From Octopus vulgaris (Eukaryota): 64,000 nucleotides of DNA. A model generated the notes under the pieces. That model ran no database searches, was not told where the DNA came from, and saw only the letters and a list, made by a program, of their open reading frames with translations. Each line of letters begins with the position of its first letter. The stretch's first letter is position 1. The stretch lies in the NCBI GenBank assembly GCA_951406725.2, contig OX597817.1, positions 60,450,001 to 60,514,000 of the forward strand. Reading direction: 5' to 3'. Shown here in pieces: positions 5,961-58,478 of this stretch. Made by a program: the position numbers and the translations under genes.

Positions 5961-6367
5961 TAATCTTTTCTACTCTAGGCACAAGGCCAGAAAGATTGGG
6001 GGAGCGGGGTAGTCGATTAGATCGACCCCAGTACGCGACTGGTACTTAATTTTATAGACCCCGAAAGGATGAAAGGCAAAGTCGACCTCAGCGGAATTTG
6101 AACTCAGAATGTAAAGACAGACGAAATACCTATTTCTATTTCTTTACTACCCACAAGGGGCTAAACACAGAGAGGACAAACAAGGACACACAAACGGATT
6201 AAGTCGATTATATCGACCCCAGTGCGTAACTGGTACTTAATTTATCGACTTCAAAAGGATGAAAGGTAAAGTTTACCTCGGCGGAATTTGAATTCAGAAC
6301 GTAAAGACAGACGAAATACCGCTAAGCGTTTTGCCCGGTGAGCTAACGACTCTGCCAGCTCACCGCC
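5961..6367 (-). mobile_element. SINE family B dimer (tRNA-like head, Deu/Nin-like domain; unit 1 has a Tx1-like tail, unit 2 has tail type 2)
   Basis: GGCGGTGAGCTGGCAGA head; GTCGACTTTGCCTTTCATCCTTTCGGGGTC domain present twice (one copy diverged); junction at 6130/6131. Confidence 0.85.
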
Positions 6368-6679
6368 TTAGAAAATGAATGAAACAGGATGAAATTGGCA
6401 GTAAAGGCCGTGTAAGTAATGCGATGAAAGAAACAAAAGACAACGACGATGAAAGTGAGTGAGCTTTGAAAGCACATATCAATTCTATGTTGATATCTCT
6501 TGTGTGAAACGTTACAAAAATAATAAAATAAAGATATTGTCTCGGAAACACGATAAAGTCAGGGCTTTCATCCCTTGGTGGAGACAAAGAAACCAATTGT
6601 AAAATTCAACAGAATCACTCGTAAAATGGGTATCTATTATATTTTCCCGTTAGGTAGATAGGAATCTGACGCTACTTTT

Positions 6680-18554: not shown

Positions 18555-20060
18555 GTCAACCGTCATAGTGTCTAACCAGAAGCACATCGAGCTGGTCGGC
18601 GAGACACTGAAAGACTACGAAGCAGTAACAGGAGCGGAAATCAACCAGGAAAAGTCAGTGAGCTTGCGGCTCGGCACCTAGAGAAGCAAGCCCATGCCGT
18701 CCGCCAGCGCCTCCGTCGTAGGACGCTGGACCGACGGTTCGGTCGAGTTGCTCGAGGTCTGGTTTGGTCAACACCCGTTAAAAGGAGGGCTGGGCATGCC
18801 GTGGTTGATGATGCGCAGACACGTGCTGAGACTGTGACATCTCCGGCTCTACGTAGACGACGGTGAACAGGTGTGGTCGCCGTTTGTGAAGCGCGCTTTT
18901 CCGCAACTCGTCTCCATGACCGAACTGCAGTCGTGGATCAAAAAGAGGCCGAGGAAGGGCGAATGGCACCACGAGTGTCGCGTTGCTCTCAAGCAACTCT
19001 GCCGTCCCGGGTCGACCTTGAGTGACTCCATCACAACCCAAGCATTCTATAGGAGATTAGTGGAGGGGAGGTACGACGACGAGCTCGGGGCGAACCTGGA
19101 CGTCGACGAGGAATACCTGACCCGCCTGTTCGGGACGACTTTCGGGCCAGGGCCCATGGACAACTTCCAGAGATCCCTGGCCTGGCAGTGCTACCGAGAA
19201 GCGCTACCCATTCGGGATAAGCTCTACAGACACAGCTCGAGAAACACGGGGCCGACCTACCCGAGATGCGGTCAGAGCGACGAAACCGTTCTGCACGCAC
19301 TCGTGCAGTGTCCAACAATTTCCAACCTGTGGGCTTATGTCGAACAACTGCTGTCACGTGTGGGACGAGTCGGTTTATCAGCTGAGTCTATCGTCAATAT
19401 TGTCACGCCTCCTTCCTTCAAACGGGAAGGAAGAGCTATTTTCATCATCCTTGTGGCTATGGCGAAAGAATGTATCTGGTGGACGCGTCTGAAAGGATTG
19501 GAGACAAACACTTTCCTCTCTGGTCAATCTCTCATCAACTTCTTCAAGTACCACTTGAAAAGGAAAGTGAGAGTAGAGAGGCAAGTTTTGTCTAGCGAAT
19601 GTTTTAAAAAAAGATAGGTGAATGTAGCAAGGATGATTGACGAAGCCACCTTGAGCATAATCCTGTGAACCCAGAAATTGAAAACAGAGGGTTACCCACT
19701 TGCAAACAAATGTGGTAACACATAACAATATTGACCGAGGTTACCGTGGTCTTTTCCGTAGGCTTTTCTTCCCACGGATAAACCTTATCTGCTTCCCCCT
19801 TTACACCGTACATTATGACACTGTGATACACGATCCCTATTGATCGTTTTTTTTCCTCTTCCCCTTTTTTCCTCTTTTTTCTTCTTTTTTCTTTTTTCTT
19901 TTCTTTTGTTTCTTTTCCTTTTTTTCTTTTTTTCTTTTTTCCCTTTTACGATCCTTTTGATCGAAAACCTACGCCACTTTTTTTTTCTCCCTCCAAAAGA
20001 AAAGCTCTACCTTGTAATTTGTCCCATCTGTGTGCAGCCTTGTGTAGCCAATAAAGAAAC
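18555..20060 (+). mobile_element. 5'-truncated Tx1-clade LINE, copy 1 (ORF2 C-terminal part, pseudogenised)
   Basis: HIELVGETLKDYEAVTGAEINQEKS..., GGLGMPW, zinc-finger remnant PRCGQSDETVLHALVQC. In-frame stops and a ~250-bp deletion at ~18768 relative to the 30279 copy. 3' UTR with AATAAA, followed by (ATCT)n. Confidence 0.9.
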
Positions 20061-20153
<93 letters not shown>

Positions 20154-20862: not shown

Positions 20863-21936
20863 CAGTTGTTGGGGACTGAAGTATTTTATAACTCAAAATT
20901 GCAAGAGTAATCTTTGGGTTGCAGTTTTCCCTATATTCTCGATGTGACATCAACCGGAAAGATGATCAGAGATTGCGAGGCCTAACATATTTAAAGATCT
21001 TGAAGCTTTTCCGGTGGCTGTTGTCCAAGACTCGAGGGGTTAAGGGAAAAGAACCTTTCTTTGATATGTGCAGCAGTGACTGTGTTTTTGATCTGATCAA
21101 AGAGAAAACATGATCAGGTTTCCATAACAACGCTCAAGAGATTCACGTTTCCCAGAAGAAAATAAGCTTTGGTGCATTGTGCGGATTTCGCAAGTCTTTG
21201 TATAGAGATGGAAGCGTTGTTAATGAAATTGAACGTGAAGTTGTACATTCATCGTTTTCGTAAGGATTTTGGTAGGTTTTGGCTCCAGACGAAGGAATCA
21301 GAAGATACATTGGTGCCAGCTGTAACCCCTTCTCGATTACTTTCAGTAACTCAGCTGAATGGTTGTGGTTCAGTCGAACACCTCAAAAACTTATATTCAC
21401 GGGGTTACAATTTATAAATGATGACAAAAAAAAAAAAGGATACGGGAGCATGTGCCAGCTGACAGGGGAGCCAGTCGAGGAGTTACCCACGGCATCAGAT
21501 CTTGTTTCTACCCGGTTGCGCAGAAACATTCACCATAATAAATTCTTTGTTTTTTTGCCTTTTGTTTAGCTAATTTTATAGTAACTTCTTGCTCTTGGAA
21601 TGCACCTGTGAGGTGCCAAAGATAGCATAAACACCTTGCCAATGCTTACAGACACAGTCCCCCCAAGTTTTATGGAACATACACATACAAACACTTTATT
21701 GGTATTCTGCATCTTTCTTCTGCTGGTAAAGTTAATTAATGAATGCTGTGTGGAGGAATTGAAGAACTCGTTGAACACTAGCGACACCAGCGGGATATTG
21801 TTGAAGCATTTATTTCTATGATCGATTGTTTAGCAGATTCTGTTATACGATACGACACTGATCTAAATCGCTTTCCTTCTAAACAAATAACCAATGTTAC
21901 CATTATTAACGAGTATCAATAGTAACATCGATTTAA

Positions 21937-22319
21937 GGCGGCGAGCTGGCAGAAACGTTAGCACGCCGGGCGAATTGCATAGCCGTATTTCGTCTGAGTT
22001 CAAATTCCGCCGAGGTCGACTTTGCCTTTCATCGTTTTCAGGGTCGATTAAATAACTACCTGTTACGCACTGAGGTCGATATGATCGACTTAATCCGTTT
22101 GTCTGTCCTTGTTTGTCCTCTCTGTGTTTAGCCCCTTGTGGGTAGTAAAGAAATAGGTATTTCGTCAGCCTTTATGTTATGAGTTCAAATTCCGCTAATC
22201 CTAACACTAACCCTTCAGGGTCGATAACTTAAGTACCAGTTGCGTACTGGGGTCGATCTAATCGGCTGGCTCCTCCTCCCCAAATTTCGGGCCTTGTGTC
22301 TAGAGTAGAAAAGAATATT
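21937..22319 (+). mobile_element. SINE family B dimer (Tx1-tailed unit plus tail-2 unit)
   Basis: Junction AAAGAAATA|GGTATTTCGTC at 22155/22156. Confidence 0.85.
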
Positions 22320-22331
22320 AACAACCATTTA

Positions 22332-22525
22332 AGGCAGCGAGTTGGCAGAATGGTTACCGCGCCGGGCGAAATGCATCTCCTCCGTCTTTACACACTGCGT
22401 TCAAATTCTGCCGCGGTCGACTTTGCCTTTCCTCCTTTCGGGGTCGATCAAATAAGTACCAGTTGAGCGCTGAGGTCAATGTAAATCACTTACCCTTCCT
22501 CCAAAAGTGCTGGCCTTGTGACAAA
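22332..22525 (+). mobile_element. SINE family B monomer (tail type 2)
   Basis: GGCAGCGAGTTGGCAGAA head and GTCGACTTTGCCTTTCCTCCTTTCGGGGTCGA domain. Confidence 0.8.
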
Positions 22526-22609
22526 ACTTGGAACCAATATTAACTCATTTGATATTGAGCCTTGCTCGTTTTGATATCAATGAAGCGCAATTCCTTTACA
22601 ATATTGTTA

Positions 22610-23869: not shown

Positions 23870-24058
23870 TGACATGTTTCAGTCTGCGACCATGCTGGGG
23901 CACCGTTTCGAAGTCTTAAGTCCAACAAATCAACCCCAGTACTTATTTGTTAAATTCTGGTGCTGATTTCATCAGTATATTTTGCTGAACCGCTAAGTTA
24001 CGGGAACGTAAAGAAACCATTACCGGTTGTCAATCGTTGGGTAGAGAGGGACACAAAC
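23870..24058 (-). mobile_element. SINE family A, 3' half
   Basis: Reverse complement of TTGACAACCGGT..AACTTAGCGGTTCAGCAAA..GTGCCCCAGCATGGTCGCAGACTGAAAC. Confidence 0.7.
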
Positions 24059-29219: not shown

Positions 29220-29456
29220 TGTATGTCTATATATATACATACACATACACACACATATATATATGCACACATGCATATACATACATACATACATATATAG
29301 TATATATAAATATATACACATTTATCTAACTTATATGATATATATGTATTATGTATATATGTATGTGTATGCATATATGCGTGTATATCTATATATGTAT
29401 ACGTACATTTATAAATGTATACACATGTATATAATAAATGCATGTGTGTATGTATA

Positions 29457-29882: not shown

Positions 29883-30278
29883 GCCTTTGCACAGATTCTA
29901 ACACTGGAGATGTATTACAGTGTCAGCTGTTCACTACCAGTGAACTAAGCTAATACCCCTTATTTTTCGAGCATCATCCGGAGTATTCGAGTGGTTCCAA
30001 GCGGTGCTCTTTTCTGCAAGTGCTCCACCCTTATTGCAGCCCCTATTTGTTCCACGTACTTCTCGAGATTTTGGCTCACTGTTCCCAGGGCTCCGACAGT
30101 TATTGGTACTACTGCTACCTTTTTCATCGACCACAACCGCTTTACTTCCCAAGCTAACCTGTTCATATCTCTCGACTTTTCTTTCTTCCTTATCACACAC
30201 CTTGGTGTCAGCTGGGCATGCTATATCTATGATCCAGCATAGTTTGCTTTCTATCTCAATTCAGGCTATGTTCGGCTT
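29883..30278 (-). mobile_element. 5'-truncated R4/Dong-like LINE (RLE C-terminus plus 3' UTR)
   Basis: KPNIA*IEIESKLCWIIDIACPADTKVCDKEERKVERY..LAWEVKRLWSMKKVAVVPITVGALG..LQK..LGTTRILR; ends in (TAA)n on its own strand. Confidence 0.9.
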
Positions 30279-32455
30279 AAACAAGGGGGACGTTATAGGG
30301 AATTTCCGGCCCATCACTCTGCTCAATGCAGAGTTGAAGATTTTGGCCAAGGTGCTAGCCAAGAGATTGGCGCTTGTCGTGGACAAGCTGGTCGGCAAGA
30401 CGCAGACATGCGCCGTGCCGACCAGGTCGATACACGACAACCTCCATCTCATGCGCTACATCATAGAGAGGGCGGGTAACGACGCTGGCGCGGGTGGGGC
30501 TTTGATCAACTTGGATCAGAGTAAAGCCTTCGATAGGGTCGACCATCGGTACCTGGCAGCTGTCCTCAGGGCAGCCGGCTTCGGTCCAGTCTTCCGCGGG
30601 TGGATCGCTGCTTTATACAGCAACATCTGCTCGGTGATACGGGTGAACGGTCACCTTTCGGAACCGTTCGACATCTCGCGTTCGGTCCGCCAAGGATGCC
30701 CTCTCTCCTCCCTCTTGTACATTTTGACTCTCGAGCCATTACTGCGCAAGTTGGAGGCTTTGAGGGGTATCCCGCGCGATCTAGGAGGCGGAAACAGCGT
30801 GTCTGCTTATGCCGACGACGTCACCGTGGTGGTGTCGAGCCACAGGCACATTGGCCTGATTGGCGAGACGCTAAACCAGTACGAAGCGGTGACAGGGGCA
30901 AAGATTAACGCGGAAAAGTCCGTGGGCTTGCAACTGGGCACCTGGAGAGGCAAGCCCATGCCGTCCAACAGCGTCGTAGGGCGCTGGACAGACGGACCCG
31001 TTAAACTGCTCGGGGTCTGGTTCGGTCCGGACCTCCAGGTGGATAAGAACTGGGAAGAGGTGACGAGCAGGGTGGCACGTCTCACCCAGAAATGGGCCGA
31101 GAGGAAGCTGTCCCTGAAAGGTCGAGCGGAGGTGGCGAATGCGTACATCGCATCCGTCATCTATTACCGCTTGACCGTCGTCCCTTGTCCCGACCGCTGG
31201 TTGGCCAAGCTGGTACGTCTGCTCTTCGACTTTTTGTGGAAGGGTCAGGTGCCACTGGTCAGGCGATCCATCTGCTGTCAACGACCGCTGAACGGAGGCC
31301 TTGGAATGCCGTGGCTACTGTTGCGCAGACATGCGCTCAGGCTGCGGCATCTCAAGCGCTTCCTAGACGGTGAACAGGTGTGGTCGTCTTTTGTCAGACG
31401 CGATTTTCCGCAGCTCGTCTCTTTGACGGAACTGCAGACCTGGATCAAACGTAGACCGAGAAAGGGCGCTTGGCACCTCGAGTGCCGTCAAGCCCTCTCC
31501 GCCCTCCGCCAGGCGGGCAATGCGGTCGGTTACAGCTCCACTCTAGCGTTCTATAGAGGGTTAGTGGAGGAAAAATGCGACGACGTTCTCGGGGAAACTC
31601 TAGGCGTTGAAGATGACGAACTGTGCGGTCTGTTCGGGAGGACTTTCGGGCCGGGGCCGATGGATAATTTCCAGAGGTCTCTCGCTTGGCAGTGCTACCG
31701 AGGGGCTCTGCCTGTTCGAGATAAACTCTACCGGCACGGAAGTGCCGTCAGCCGGGCCTGCCCGAGGTGTTGCCAGGACGACGAAACCGTCCTGCACGCA
31801 CTCGTCCAGTGCCCGAGTATTGCTGAAATATGGGTTTATGTCGAACAGCTACTGTCACGTATAGGACGGATCCGACTATCGGCCGAATCCATAGTGAAGA
31901 TTGCCCCGCCGACCTCCTTTAACAAGGAGGGCGAGGCCGTTTTCTTGTGCCTAGTGGCTGTGGCGAAAGAGGTGGTGTAGTGGACTCGTTTGAAAGGGCT
32001 AAAGACAGACACTTTCCTCTTTGGTCAAGGCCTCATCAACTTTTTCAAGTTTCACTTGAAAAGGAAGATGAGGTTAGAGAGGAAAGTGCTGTCCGATAGC
32101 AAGTTTTATGAAAGGTGGGTGAATTGTGCGAGACTGGCCTGTATAAATGGACCAGTTCTCAGGTTTCGCCTGTGATTTCAAAGAAAAAGGTAATGTAAAA
32201 GGAGAAGAAAGGGGACTCTCTACACCCCTCTTTTTTTGACCAGGCTCCCGTTGGCTTTTGTAGGGTTTTTTCCACCAGGAACCTTTCGAAACGTCTCCCC
32301 CTTTTGGGAGTTTTTCATTGTTGAATTTTATAAGTTGTTATAAAGATTTTTACTCGATGTTTTTGAAAAACGGCAAAACCCTTTGTAACCTTTCGTCCTG
32401 TCTTGTCCATTTATGTAATCATGCGTGTCAGCCCTTGTGGCCAATAAAAAAGAAT
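30279..32455 (+). mobile_element. 5'-truncated Tx1-clade LINE, copy 2
   Basis: RT, zinc finger and 3' UTR ending GCCCTTGTGGCCAATAAAAAAGAA, followed by (ATT)n; GC-rich against the background. Confidence 0.93.
30280..32175 (+). pseudogene. Tx1-type ORF2: reverse transcriptase plus zf-RVT, lacking the APE domain, with one premature stop
   Basis: NFRPITLLN, LDQSKAFDRVDH, VRQGCPLS, AYADD, CPRC..ETVLHALVQC; TAG at 31978-31980 where copy 1 has TGG; the frame continues to 32175. Confidence 0.92.
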
Positions 32456-32918: not shown

Positions 32919-33140
32919 GACGACGAGCTGGCAGACTCGTTAGCATGGCGAGTGAAATACTTAGCAGTGTTTCATCTGCCGCTACGTTCTGAGTTCAAAT
33001 TCAGACAAGGTCGATTTTTGCATTTCAACCTTTCGGGGTCGATAAATTAAGTACCAGTTAAGTACAGGGGTCGATGTGATCGATTGCGCTCCCTCTCCAC
33101 AAAATCCAGGTCTTCTATCTATAGTAGAAAGGATTATTAT
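32919..33140 (+). mobile_element. SINE family B monomer with an (ATT)n tail
   Basis: Head, Deu/Nin-like domain and tail 2 ending TAGTAGAAAGGATTATT. Confidence 0.8.
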
Positions 33141-33288: not shown

Positions 33289-33597
33289 AGGCAGTGAGGT
33301 GGCAGAAACGTTAGCACGCCGAGCGAAATGTTTAGCGGTATTTCGTCTGTCGCTACGTTCTGAGTTTAAATTCCGCCGGAATCGACTTTGACTTTCATTC
33401 TTTCGGGGTCGATATATTTAGTACCAGTTGCGTACTTGGATCACTCTAGTCGACTGGCCCCCTTCCCCAAAATTTCAGGCCTTGTACTTATAACAGGATT
33501 ATTAATTAGACAGCGACATCATGGTAGAATCGTTAGTACATGGTATAAAATCCTAGAGGCATTTTTCTGAGTTCAAATGCTGTCGAGGTCGACTTTG

Positions 33598-40271: not shown

Positions 40272-41868
40272 CTGTGGGGGACAAAAGAGTTTGCAGACCT
40301 ATTTTTTCTGAATTTCTTTATTAATTTTGCTTTATTTTTTAGTTTCACCTCTTCCATCATTTGCTGGTTGCCATTCTGTTTTTTTTCATTACTACATTTT
40401 ACGAAAAAACCCAGAATTTAATAATTGTTAAACATTTTCCTCTTTTCAGGTGAGCCAAAAGTTTATGCAGGTAACATAAATTTATTAATAATGGCTAAAG
40501 GAAAGATGTTGACAGATAGCGAGAAGGGTGAAATTGTTAAATTACTTGCTGCAAAGAAGTCTACATTAGAAATTTCAAAAAGTTTGAAACGAGATCATCG
40601 AACTGTGAAACGTTTCATTGACGGCAAAGATGGAAGAAAAAAGCACAAAAGTGGCAGAGCAAAGGTGACTTCACCACGAGATTTGAGAAAAATCAAGAGG
40701 AGTGTGCTAGCAAACCCACACAGCACAAGCAAAGCTATTTTCGACCATGCAGGAGTGTCTGACATCTCTAAAAGGACCCGAAATCGGATTTTGAAACAAA
40801 TAGCTGACCAGAGAACACCGACAAAATGTCCTCCTTTGAGTGATATCAACTGTCAGAAGCGACTAGCATGGGCCACTAAATATTTGAAAACCAATTTTCA
40901 AAATGTTCTCTGGACTGACGAGGCTAGAGCAACCCTCGACGGTCCCGACGGTTGGACCAAGGGATGGCTTCTTAAGGCAATAGCCCACGCTTGCGATTCA
41001 GACGTCAACAGGGCGGAGGGGGAGTGATGATTTGGGCTGGGATTATTGGAAGTGAGATTGTTGGTCCTTTTCTTGTCCCTGAAGGTGTCAAAATGAATTC
41101 TGTGAACTACTGCGAGTTTTTGGAAGAGAATTTATTGCCCTGGTTGAATTCACAAAATGATGCTGTTAACCAGAATCTCATTATTCAACAAGACAATGCC
41201 CCAAGCCATGCTTCTCGGTTCACAAAAGCTTGGCTTTCAGACCAGGGGATCTCTGGTGAACGTCTGATGGACTGACCACCAAAGAGCCCGGATTTGAATC
41301 CGATAGAGAACCTCTGGTCGATTCTGAAGAGGAAAGTTTACGAAAACGGGCATCAATTCAACAGTAAAAAAGATATTTGGGAGAGGATCAAGGAGGTATC
41401 TTCTGAAATCACACCTCAACAAGTGCATAAATTAACATCCTCTGTTGATAGGAGGCTGATGGATTTGATTAAGAATGAAGGAAAGCGTATAAAGGGTTAA
41501 ATTGTTTTATAAATTTGTATTGTTTTGTTAATTGTTATTTGAGCAATAACTGTTGTTTTCTTGTAATATGTTATCAATATATGGTACTATTATCATAATG
41601 ACACAATGTTTCAAATTATATTATGTTTAAAAATGTTATTTATTTCGAATAAATGAGTCTTGCAAACTCTTTTGGTCCATATTCCTTCCTGAAATTTTTT
41701 AAAAATCCATATTTTCCCCCCAGAATATGATTATTTGGTTTCTGTCTCTAGGAATTTACTTTATATATTTGCATATCGAACAATGAGTAACATAGTTATT
41801 ATATTGGAAAATATTGAAGCATAAATTTATCAATATATACAATTTGCAAACACTTTTGACCCCCACAG
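40272..41868 (+). mobile_element. Full-length Tc1-like DNA transposon, DD37E (TRT-like)
   Basis: TA duplications at 40270-40271 and 41869-41870; TIRs CTGTGGGGGACAAAAGAGTTTGCA / TGCAAACACTTTTGACCCCCACAG; transposase inside. Confidence 0.93.
40491..41500 (+). pseudogene. DD37E Tc1 transposase with two lesions
   Basis: MAKGKMLTDSEKGEI.. HTH region, WTDEARATLDGPDGW, QQDNAP, PPKSPDLNPIENLW; 37 residues between the second D and E; 1-bp frameshift at ~40976 and TGA at 41273-41275 in place of W. Confidence 0.9.
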
Positions 41869-55690: not shown

Positions 55691-56007
55691 AAGATATAAA
55701 AAAAAACACAAATGTTTTAAGAATTTCTTCGATAGGCAAGAACTGTGCCGTTTGTAGGTCACATGCAATATTTGGAATAAAGATTATCGGCAAAGATAAG
55801 AGAGTCTTTTTTTTTGTCTGTTTTTGTGTCTCATTAATTTTATGCTTTCAACAAACGTTTTTTGCTGGAAATTTCGTGGGTTTTGTTTAGATATTTTCAG
55901 CGATTTTAGTTTGCGATTATTAACGGAGTAAAAGAATCAACGGTGAAGAAGTCTTTTATATATTTTAAAAATTTCTTTTATCGTTTGATATTTCTTTCAA
56001 GACTTAG

Positions 56008-56598
56008 AGCGGCGAGCTGGCAGAATCGTTAGCACGCCGGGCGAAATGCTTAGCGGTATTTCGTCTGTCGCTACGTTGTGAGTTCAAATTCCGCCGAGGT
56101 CGACTTTGCCTTTCATCCTTTCGGGGTCGATAAATTAAGTACCAGTTACGCACTGGGGTCGATGTAATCGACCTAATACCTATGTCTGTCCTTGTTTGTC
56201 CCCTCTGTGTTTAGCCCCTTGTGGGTAATAAAGAAATAGAAATAGGTATTTCGTCTGCCGTTTCGTTCTGAGTTAAAATTCCGCCGAGGTCGACTTTGCC
56301 TTTCATCCTTTCGGGGTCGATTAACTAAGTACCAGTTACGCACTGGGGTCGATATAATCGACTTAATCCGTTTGTCTAGCCTTGTTTGTCCTCTCTGTGT
56401 TTAGCCCCTTGTGGGTAGTAAAGAAATAGGTATTTCCTCTGACGTTACGTTCTGAATTAAAATTCCGCCGAGGTCGACTTTGCCTTTCATCCTTTCGGGG
56501 TCGATAAATTAAGTACCAGTTACGCACTGGGGTCGATATAATCGACTTAATCCGTTTGTCTGTCCTTGTTTGTCCCCCTTGTGGGTAGTAAAGAAATA
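56008..56598 (+). mobile_element. SINE family B trimer, all three units with Tx1-like tails
   Basis: Junctions GAAATA|GGTATTTC at 56244/56245 and 56428/56429; repeat units ~170-185 bp. Confidence 0.9.
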
Positions 56599-57165: not shown

Positions 57166-57540
57166 AGCTGGCAGAAACGTTAGCATGCCGGGCAAAATGC
57201 TTAGCGGTATTTCGTCTGCCGTTACGTTCTGAGTTTAAATTCTGCCGAGGTCGACTTTGCCTTTCATCCTTTCGGGGTCGATTAAATAAGAACCAGTTAC
57301 GCACTGGGGTCGATATAATCGATTTAATCCGTTTGTTTGTCCTCTCTGTGTTTAATCCCTTGTGGACTAAAGAAGTAGGTATTTCATCTGTCTTTACGCT
57401 CTGAGTTCAAATTCCGCTGAGGTTAGCTTTGACTTTCATCCTTTCGGGGTCGATAACATAAGTACTAGTGATGTACTGTGGTTGATGTAATCGACTTACC
57501 CCTTCCCCCCAAATTTCAGCCCTTGCAGATAAGGATTATT
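57166..57540 (+). mobile_element. SINE family B dimer
   Basis: Junction AGAAGTA|GGTATTTCATC at ~57377; the second unit has tail 2. Confidence 0.85.
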
Positions 57541-58478
57541 AGCGGGGGTGGGGGATCGACGGAGGCGAAAAGCAGCAGAGCGTCTAACGATTTTGTCAAC
57601 CCACTGCCCTTCAAACATGTATTTTTACAAAAATGCTCAATATTGAGTTATCGAGCTTCAAGCAGTTCTATATTGATTTTAAAATTGCACGTTGCATTAA
57701 TGAAGGAGAGTGCTGTTTGTCACAGGTTGCCAACAAACACATCGTTGGTTTATTAAATTTGCGACGGCAATTGTGACAAAGGGTTTTCGGTGTCATCTGT
57801 ATAAAACAAAGGGATTTTTCTCGGTATTGGTCTCGCCGAAGGGACACACAGACACACATTTACTATTGACAGGGGTGATCTGGGAAAAATTTTGTTGCTA
57901 TTTGCAACAGGTCCAGCGACAATGTAATGACTTCATTGTTATAAGAAGCCAACAAAGAATTGAAACCGAGTCGCAGTGTCAACTCGACCAAAGTTCATCT
58001 TTCTCCTACCCAACACCCGTCTCCTCCGAACATCCTCCTCTTCCTTCTTCACGACAGCAAACTACACGACGTTATCTTGCGTCGCTGCCCACAACATTGT
58101 TTATATATTTCGTTCTGTTTCGTTACCAAGAAATTAGCTTTCAGTGGGCCGTACGTCAGTCGGAGTTGTCTTAAAGTTTATAATATATAACTTTGGTGCC
58201 TGTTTTTTGCGTTAATGTCCATAGTTAAGCGATTTTCAAACACTGGCGCGTGAAACATAACACTGCGTATGATAAATCAACATTGTCTTCTTCACATCCT
58301 CAAATATATTCTCAATCTCTCCTTTCTCTCGTCTGTCCATCAGGCCATCTTTTCATTCGTTGCTTCGTTCCTTCGTTCGTCAAGCCAGGCAGTAACCCTC
58401 TACCCTCAATCTCTATCATTCGCCTAACGCCCTCTCTTACTTTCTATCTCTCTAGCCATCATCCATGCCAACCAACCA

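Follow-up and report, generated by a model that had tools for sequence, protein, structure and literature searches.

Targeted LINEs use rRNA, snRNA and tRNA loci, microsatellites or unrelated transposons as insertion sites. Several described systems resemble the octopus arrays reported here. In the crocodilian SINEU-3/Tx1-Mar system, both a SINE and Tx1 LINEs insert at one target in another transposon with a duplication of about 16 bp, and tandem copies arise by sequential insertion, according to the accessible text of Kojima 2015 (PMC4494074). The same text summarises Tx1L, found in Tx1D, and Keno, Kibi and Koshi, all APE-type LINEs with a fixed target. For R1 of the melanogaster group, the accessible portion of PMC2718515 describes transcripts carrying upstream target sequence, which lead either to precise 5' junctions or to a duplication of about 14 bp together with a duplicated upstream target. 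Squamate SINE-derived satellites (PMC10702118) and blood-clam SINE multimers (PMC11481361) appear, in the available parts of those articles, with the head present once, truncated repeated units and long homogeneous arrays; TRIM/Cassandra/Helenus arrays are likewise derived from small RNAs and can look like repeat-spacer-repeat (PMC10886601, available in part). The available text of PMC13282606 reports L1-Tx1 and tRNA-Deu families in an octopus and does not contain the term 'nested', and that of PMC4758252 supplies domain background only.

The trimer and related copies in the window

The window, by which we mean the whole 64,000-nucleotide stretch of Octopus vulgaris DNA analysed (contig OX597817.1, positions 60,450,001 to 60,514,000), contains a trimeric SINE array, three dimers (57166, 21937 and 5961) and three monomers (22332, 32919 and 33289), all located where a preliminary description had placed them. 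The arrays share one plan, a single head of about 50 bp followed by 184-bp units that each start with GGTATTTCGTC. The window also holds two LINE fragments with 3' ends resembling the Tx1-like tail of these SINEs (tail 1).

56006..56054, + strand: SINE head, tRNA-like 5' part, one per array, with an A-box-like motif at 56018-56029
56055..56244, + strand: trimer unit 1, with target site GGTATTTCGTC, a B-box-like motif at 56080-56092, core, and tail 1 of the TAA subtype plus an extra GAAATA
56245..56428, + strand: trimer unit 2, core and tail 1 of the TAG subtype
56429..56598, + strand: trimer unit 3, core and tail 1 of the TAG subtype with a 14-bp tail deletion
57166..57545, + strand: heterodimer of head, tail-1 unit and older tail-2 acceptor, joint AGAAGTA/GGTATTTCATC at 57378
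21935..22320, + strand: heterodimer with a diverged tail-2 acceptor, joint at 22156
5961..6370, - strand: heterodimer with a tail-2 acceptor, joint at 6130 with an extra GAAATA
22332..22550, + strand: monomer with an older non-tail-1 end, site empty and decayed
32919..33130, + strand: monomer of the tail-2 type, site empty
33289..33500, + strand: monomer of the tail-2 type, intact empty site at 33337
18560..20061, + strand: 5'-truncated L1/Tx1-like LINE, 3' end resembling tail 1 (zf-RVT, E 1.6e-5)
30270..32452, + strand: 5'-truncated L1/Tx1-like LINE with a related tail, within (ATT)n (RVT_1, zf-RVT)

The joint sits between the A-box-like and B-box-like motifs, which are putative Pol III promoter boxes by consensus; in the SINE head, ARAGORN gave 0 tRNA matches and Rfam no match. 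The element is short, non-coding, dispersed and abundant (114 core units per 664 kb of unselected DNA), and it has its 3' tail in common with LINEs, as tRNA-derived SINEs do. Variable target duplications flank 24 of 62 tail-1 monomers (0 in the control). These outer duplications track the type of the terminal unit, being found in 19 of 61 tail-1 multimers and, for tail-2 ends, in 11 of 71 monomers and 9 of 48 heterodimers (controls 0-1). The core may be akin to the Deu/Nin-domain SINE superfamily, whose mark is a conserved central Nin/Deu domain.

The trimer units open with GGTATTTC at 56055, 56245 and 56429, the array ends at 56598, and the extra GAAATA sits at joint 1. Unit 1 differs by 8.5% from unit 2 and by 6.0% from unit 3, and in its tail diagnostics as well. 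Units 2 and 3 are 4.0% apart and share a rare A at core position 31 that is present in 6 of 469 tail-1 units. Judged from their sequences, these two are likely local duplicates of one another, so that the locus likely records one local duplication and one independent addition. A local unequal crossover as the origin of the trimer, which the preliminary description had set against its own proposal, would suit units 2 and 3 and is unlikely for the distinct unit 1. No outer duplication was recognised around the window trimer. Four of 24 sequencing runs were compared with the trimer, and the repeat swamps the signal; contigs cover the 3' flank joint in 4/4 and none spans the array, and neither a unit count nor an empty/filled polymorphism emerged from them.

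All three dimers in the window consist of a tail-1 unit joined to a tail-2 unit, and the three monomers end in a non-tail-1 tail. Compared with the core of trimer unit 1, the tail-1 unit and the acceptor show 92% and 85% identity in the heterodimer at 57166, and 89% and 78% in that at 21935. Both LINE fragments were rejected as members of a SINE-targeting family, since (TATC)n comes right after the 3' end of the first and the second is inserted in (ATT)n. Elsewhere in the window, a second dispersed short repeat family carries CTTAGCGGTTCGGCAAAAGA at 23997, 38077, 45257 and 55437, and a 200-aa frame at 40425-41027 (+) looks, by eye, like a Tc1/mariner transposase fragment.

The joint across the genome and the LINE that shares it

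We searched the whole 2.8-Gb genome for an exact 20-mer spanning tail 1 and GGTATTTCGTC, with the reversed sequence as control. The joint occurs 39,269 times (control 0), in keeping with the earlier proposal that every multimer is joined at the same internal head position; exact tail-1 ends number 106,845. When the spacer was left free, 29,248 joins fell at the site ±2 (spacing 22-26), 431 were shorter and 1,805 longer, contrary to the scattered junction positions that had been named as evidence against targeting. Among the shorter-spaced joins listed, most do begin at the site, with a deletion following, and most of the longer-spaced ones listed also begin there and carry an extra GAAATA. In the first 100 longer-spaced joins listed, about 17 fall, by eye, in the head about 33 bases upstream, where the SINE has a minor second joining site, AGAAAC (loci L004 and L130). 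This minor site fits the CAA tail subtype, which prefers AGAA. Tail 2 followed by the site gave just 4 matches at 2 loci genome-wide, against 39,269 for tail 1, which agrees with the first description of tail-2 units as terminal; 664 kb of unselected DNA contain the tail-2 motif used for the search 3 times. Site specificity of the SINE is partial, with about one third of tail ends at the site: 6 of 18 in unselected DNA, 4 of these 18 being LINE tails, and 13 of 37 where loci had been selected by tail.

Besides the seamless joints there are nested insertions, in which the site and 0-14 further bases are followed by a new head; this pattern has 148 exact matches genome-wide, a count obtained at a different stringency from the tens of thousands of seamless joints. 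Most of the 30 nested loci read begin with the old head or tail and a 14-19-bp duplicate of the site; a complete new SINE comes next, and a second occurrence of the site leads into what is left of the old copy. The duplication is about 16 bp long, and head-flanked as well as tail-flanked sites are used. In 18 informative nested arrays, the left duplicate is nearer to the acceptor in 14 and to the inserted copy in 3, with 1 tie (p=0.013). Target duplications, mostly of 13-19 bp, also accompany off-target tail-1 insertions, whose pre-insertion copies start with a GGTAT-like sequence (G16 G16 T19 A17 T15 of 27; 27 of 134 were anchored). Five such insertions (L129, L132, L134, L135 and L143) lie at GGTAC, GGCAT or GGTAT in apparently one other repeat family. 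Tandem runs of a 64-69-bp unit of head plus site, a minisatellite built from the nested form, were also seen at G000:C10:17996023-17996504 (8 copies listed) and C13:69036077-69036321 (4 listed).

A LINE joined to the SINE site eluded several searches. A pattern for the partner LINE matched 39 times, with nothing but SINE variants in the 30 loci read; several tail-sharing families, none of them joined to the SINE site, came up among the best zf-RVT hits (30 loci and 20 regions); and a clear LINE was absent among the first 100 listed of 3,225 matches to a negative pattern. A later pattern search exposed such a LINE in 7 of 30 loci. Retrieved by its own tail, it lies at the SINE site in 25 of 30 loci read (26 with L341, by eye), the remaining copies being in a near-identical site in other DNA (2) or elsewhere (2). 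The check called for in the preliminary description, for LINE 3' ends joined to the site, turned up an L1/Tx1-like LINE at the same base. Its exact tail has 43 matches genome-wide, a small and decayed subfamily, and the copies vary in length and acceptor. The full-length form is about 5 kb, with ORF1 and an ORF2 of APE-RT-zinc type, all copies being decayed; by tblastn they match intact sister ORF1 and ORF2 over their length. The sister ORF2 carries Exo_endo_phos, RVT_1 and zf-RVT, a set that recurs in homologs, and has L1 ORF2p as its best PDB match (E 4e-26). By its predicted domain content and its sequence-specific target with duplication, the partner LINE classes as L1/Tx1-like.

The 5'-intact LINE copies L341, L348 and L356 have SINE and a duplicated site upstream, and L341 retains a 17-bp outer duplication around SINE, LINE and SINE remainder. 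Against insertion of the LINE into SINE copies, where the 5' boundary of a site-joined LINE is in view, 16 of 21 have neither SINE head nor duplication upstream, and only 5 of these 16 abut another repeat. The LINE carries a CAA-subtype tail, whereas among SINE donors 215 of 256 internal units are TAG or TAA and 6 are CAA, which makes this LINE a relative of the driver rather than the proven driver. Many L1/Tx1-like families in the genome end in a tail-1-like tail, and several have a fixed target of their own, with sister families using (ATT)n, (GATA)n and other fixed sites. Among further observations on these LINEs, loci L211-L213 and L219 (G000:C2:73,044,000-73,069,000) form a head-to-tail stack of five copies of about 5.4 kb, in three of which a 1140-aa ORF2 is open; behind each copy comes a target starting GGAAGCGACACC that also flanks L214-L218 and L220. 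Another tail-sharing family (L223, L225 and L205) has a fixed site starting GAAATTCGGCAAAG. Two more non-SINE 3' ends, unlike the LINE studied here, lie at the SINE site in L324 and in L330 around 1500.

Proposed insertion into older copies and its alternatives

We favour the reading, at a probability of roughly 0.75, that the arrays form when the endonuclease and reverse transcriptase of an L1/Tx1-like LINE insert tail-1 SINE RNA into older genomic copies of that SINE superfamily at GGTATTTCGTC. The preliminary description had suggested a Tx1 enzyme inserting the SINE into its own head; the site duplications, older and diverse acceptors, unclustered units and a LINE at the same base argue for this, and the specificity proved only partial. 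Unit relationships were examined in a catalogue of 481 arrays from all loci fetched, in which most multimers had been picked through the exact-joint pattern. In 32 heterodimers with one acceptor subtype, divergence from the respective majority amounts to 0.069 for the acceptor and 0.033 for the first unit (p=6e-5); for 16 monomers of this tail-2 subtype the value is 0.086 (p=0.13). Hidden subfamily structure could inflate the acceptor divergence. Tail-1/tail-1 arrays show a weak age gap at most (n=56; 0.032 vs 0.038, p=0.11), and among 7 old-type acceptors it does not reach significance (p=0.125). Tail-2 acceptors include several tail types and vary widely (mean pairwise distance 0.18, minimum 0.059), and they show no correlation with their first unit.

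In the favoured mechanism, the bottom strand would be nicked just before GGTAT and reverse transcription would start from the tail-1 end, followed by a top-strand cut about 16 nt downstream. The cDNA, having the same head and site, would usually anneal to the acceptor head and partly replace it, giving the seamless form head-(core-tail1)n-core-tail; in a small minority of cases it would fail to anneal and leave old head, duplication and new head. Promoter spacing and site would be regenerated at both ends, so that insertion could repeat, with local duplication extending long arrays further. Copies with tail 2 were likely mobilised by other LINEs and would serve only as acceptors.

Heads of heterodimers bear on the annealing step. 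Seamless dimers were expected to keep the old head and the first 16 bases, and mostly do not; the model was therefore revised to include conversion reaching into the head. The proximal head of heterodimers derives mostly from the incoming copy, which would require conversion to extend upstream of the site. A tail-1-specific head variant occurs in 11 of 48 tail-1/tail-2 heterodimers vs 0 of 71 tail-2 monomers, and T at head position -29 is present in 20 of 48 heterodimers, between tail-1 (13/64) and tail-2 (58/71). These mosaics fit cDNA annealing to a homologous old head with partial replacement, and they fit template jumping too. Another head variant, GCGTAGC/CG, changes the first target base from G to C (for example in L117 and L297); 17 of 64 tail-1 monomers have it, as do 9 of 23 new heads in nested arrays. 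By eye, C is the starting base of just 1 among the first 100 listed acceptors, the variant being avoided or overwritten; no core or tail base linked to it was found. We tentatively entertain, at somewhat below even odds, a closed LINE-SINE loop in which the SINE is both passenger and landing pad, insertions regenerate the Pol III promoter and two sites, and the G-to-C variant would be an escape allele in a contest between copies.

As to what aims the insertion, the tail end GAAATA is indeed the reverse complement of TATTTC in the site, as originally pointed out. Such pairing was rejected as a sufficient aiming device because this end is shared by LINE families whose insertion sites vary. Endonuclease preference is our first choice, and RNA pairing may help. 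A stronger role for RNA, in which genomic insertion would be aimed mainly by pairing of the 3' end of a read-through RNA (tail plus GGUAUUUC...) with the nicked primer and not by the endonuclease, is compatible with the favoured reading and has been proposed likewise for R1 (accessible text of PMC2718515). Read-through RNA was copied at 2 of 36 truncated joints (L027 and L030), where the outer duplication comes directly after 26-29 bases of the next core, and tail subtype tracks the first target bases, GGTA following TAG in 17 of 61 and TAA in 9 of 16 cases and AGAA following CAA in 14 of 42. We nevertheless regard aiming mainly by RNA as unlikely: off-target sites gave no sign of RNA-templated overwriting (n=27; 3 vs 5 discordant bases), the LINE uses the GGTA site despite its CAA-type tail, and each of the sister LINE families has a fixed target of its own.

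Template jumping at the RNA level, which the preliminary description had offered as its alternative, would have the reverse transcriptase copy SINE RNA up to the site and jump to the 3' end of a tail-1 SINE or LINE RNA, the chimera being inserted once. It would account for tail-1-type heads on heterodimers, outer duplications of the terminal unit's type and headless LINE-core chimeras. It is nonetheless quite improbable, as acceptors have roughly double the divergence of donors and resemble genomic monomers, nested copies and full-length LINEs bear site duplications that match the acceptor, and no outer duplication was found around headless LINE-core units.

In the last alternative, a small number of composite masters would be the main origin of the arrays, through copying of their read-through RNA and through unequal crossover or slippage along the route of SINE-derived satellites. 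Adjacent tail-1 units differ by 0.097 (dimers) and 0.091 (trimers), compared with 0.104 for units of different arrays. Homogenised duplicates within a locus are a mark of SINE-derived satellites; adjacent pairs closer than the between-array 5th percentile make up 65% in arrays of at least four units, but just 21% in dimers and 27% in trimers. In a tree of 125 units from 56 arrays, first/later labels change 42 times (40.9±3.0 in 300 shuffles), and Mantel tests gave no correlation between unit 1 and unit 2 (p 0.07 and 0.67). Position labels thus fall at random on the tree, and with acceptors about twice as diverged, the common descent from one composite master that had been posed as the counter-case did not emerge; a single-master dimeric SINE was rejected on the same lack of clustering and correlation. 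The rare base common to trimer units 2 and 3, the read-through copies L027 and L030 and the lack of any visible run of four T in the window's SINE units speak for composite masters, but as the main source they are scarcely credible, for the many acceptor types, the fixed joint at 29,248 places and the LINE would go unexplained. This route is contradicted as the main source and stands as a secondary process, long arrays (at least four units) and trimer units 2 and 3 owing much to local duplication.

Significance and comparison with known systems

If insertion into older copies is correct, the LINE has as its safe haven the very SINE that it mobilises, and target abundance becomes a product of the system. 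It would also mean that dispersed SINEs can become tandem arrays by a path beginning with targeted insertion and not with crossover. The natural junctions, tens of thousands in number, would offer statistics on 5'-junction repair in target-primed reverse transcription. For annotation, such dimers, with units of different ages, would be mis-called composite subfamilies. In the literature covered we found no report of a self-targeting SINE; Repbase/Dfam, subscription papers and supplements lie outside that scope and may describe the target.

The octopus system departs from each of its described counterparts, as far as the accessible parts of the sources go. TRIM/Cassandra/Helenus are LTR elements with 4-5 bp duplications (PMC10886601), in contrast to 13-19 bp and a LINE-like tail in octopus; a TRIM reading of the arrays was rejected on the duplication length and on the position of the single head outside the repeat. 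The squamate satellites (PMC10702118) and clam multimers (PMC11481361) are attributed to duplication or recombination and have variable units, whereas the short octopus arrays join independent copies of different ages at one base. R1 is autonomous and targets 28S rDNA (PMC2718515); in octopus, homology between element and target exists because the two are one family. For Tx1L, Keno, Kibi and Koshi, the accessible text of PMC4494074 does not describe a passenger SINE that doubles as the target. The target of SINEU-3/Tx1-Mar is an unrelated Mariner (same source), while that in octopus lies inside the SINE itself, and the octopus joints are mostly seamless and headless, with the site regenerated at each insertion. 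LINE-SINE self-targeting would be a variation on Tx1-type transposon targeting in which the target lies within the mobilised SINE.
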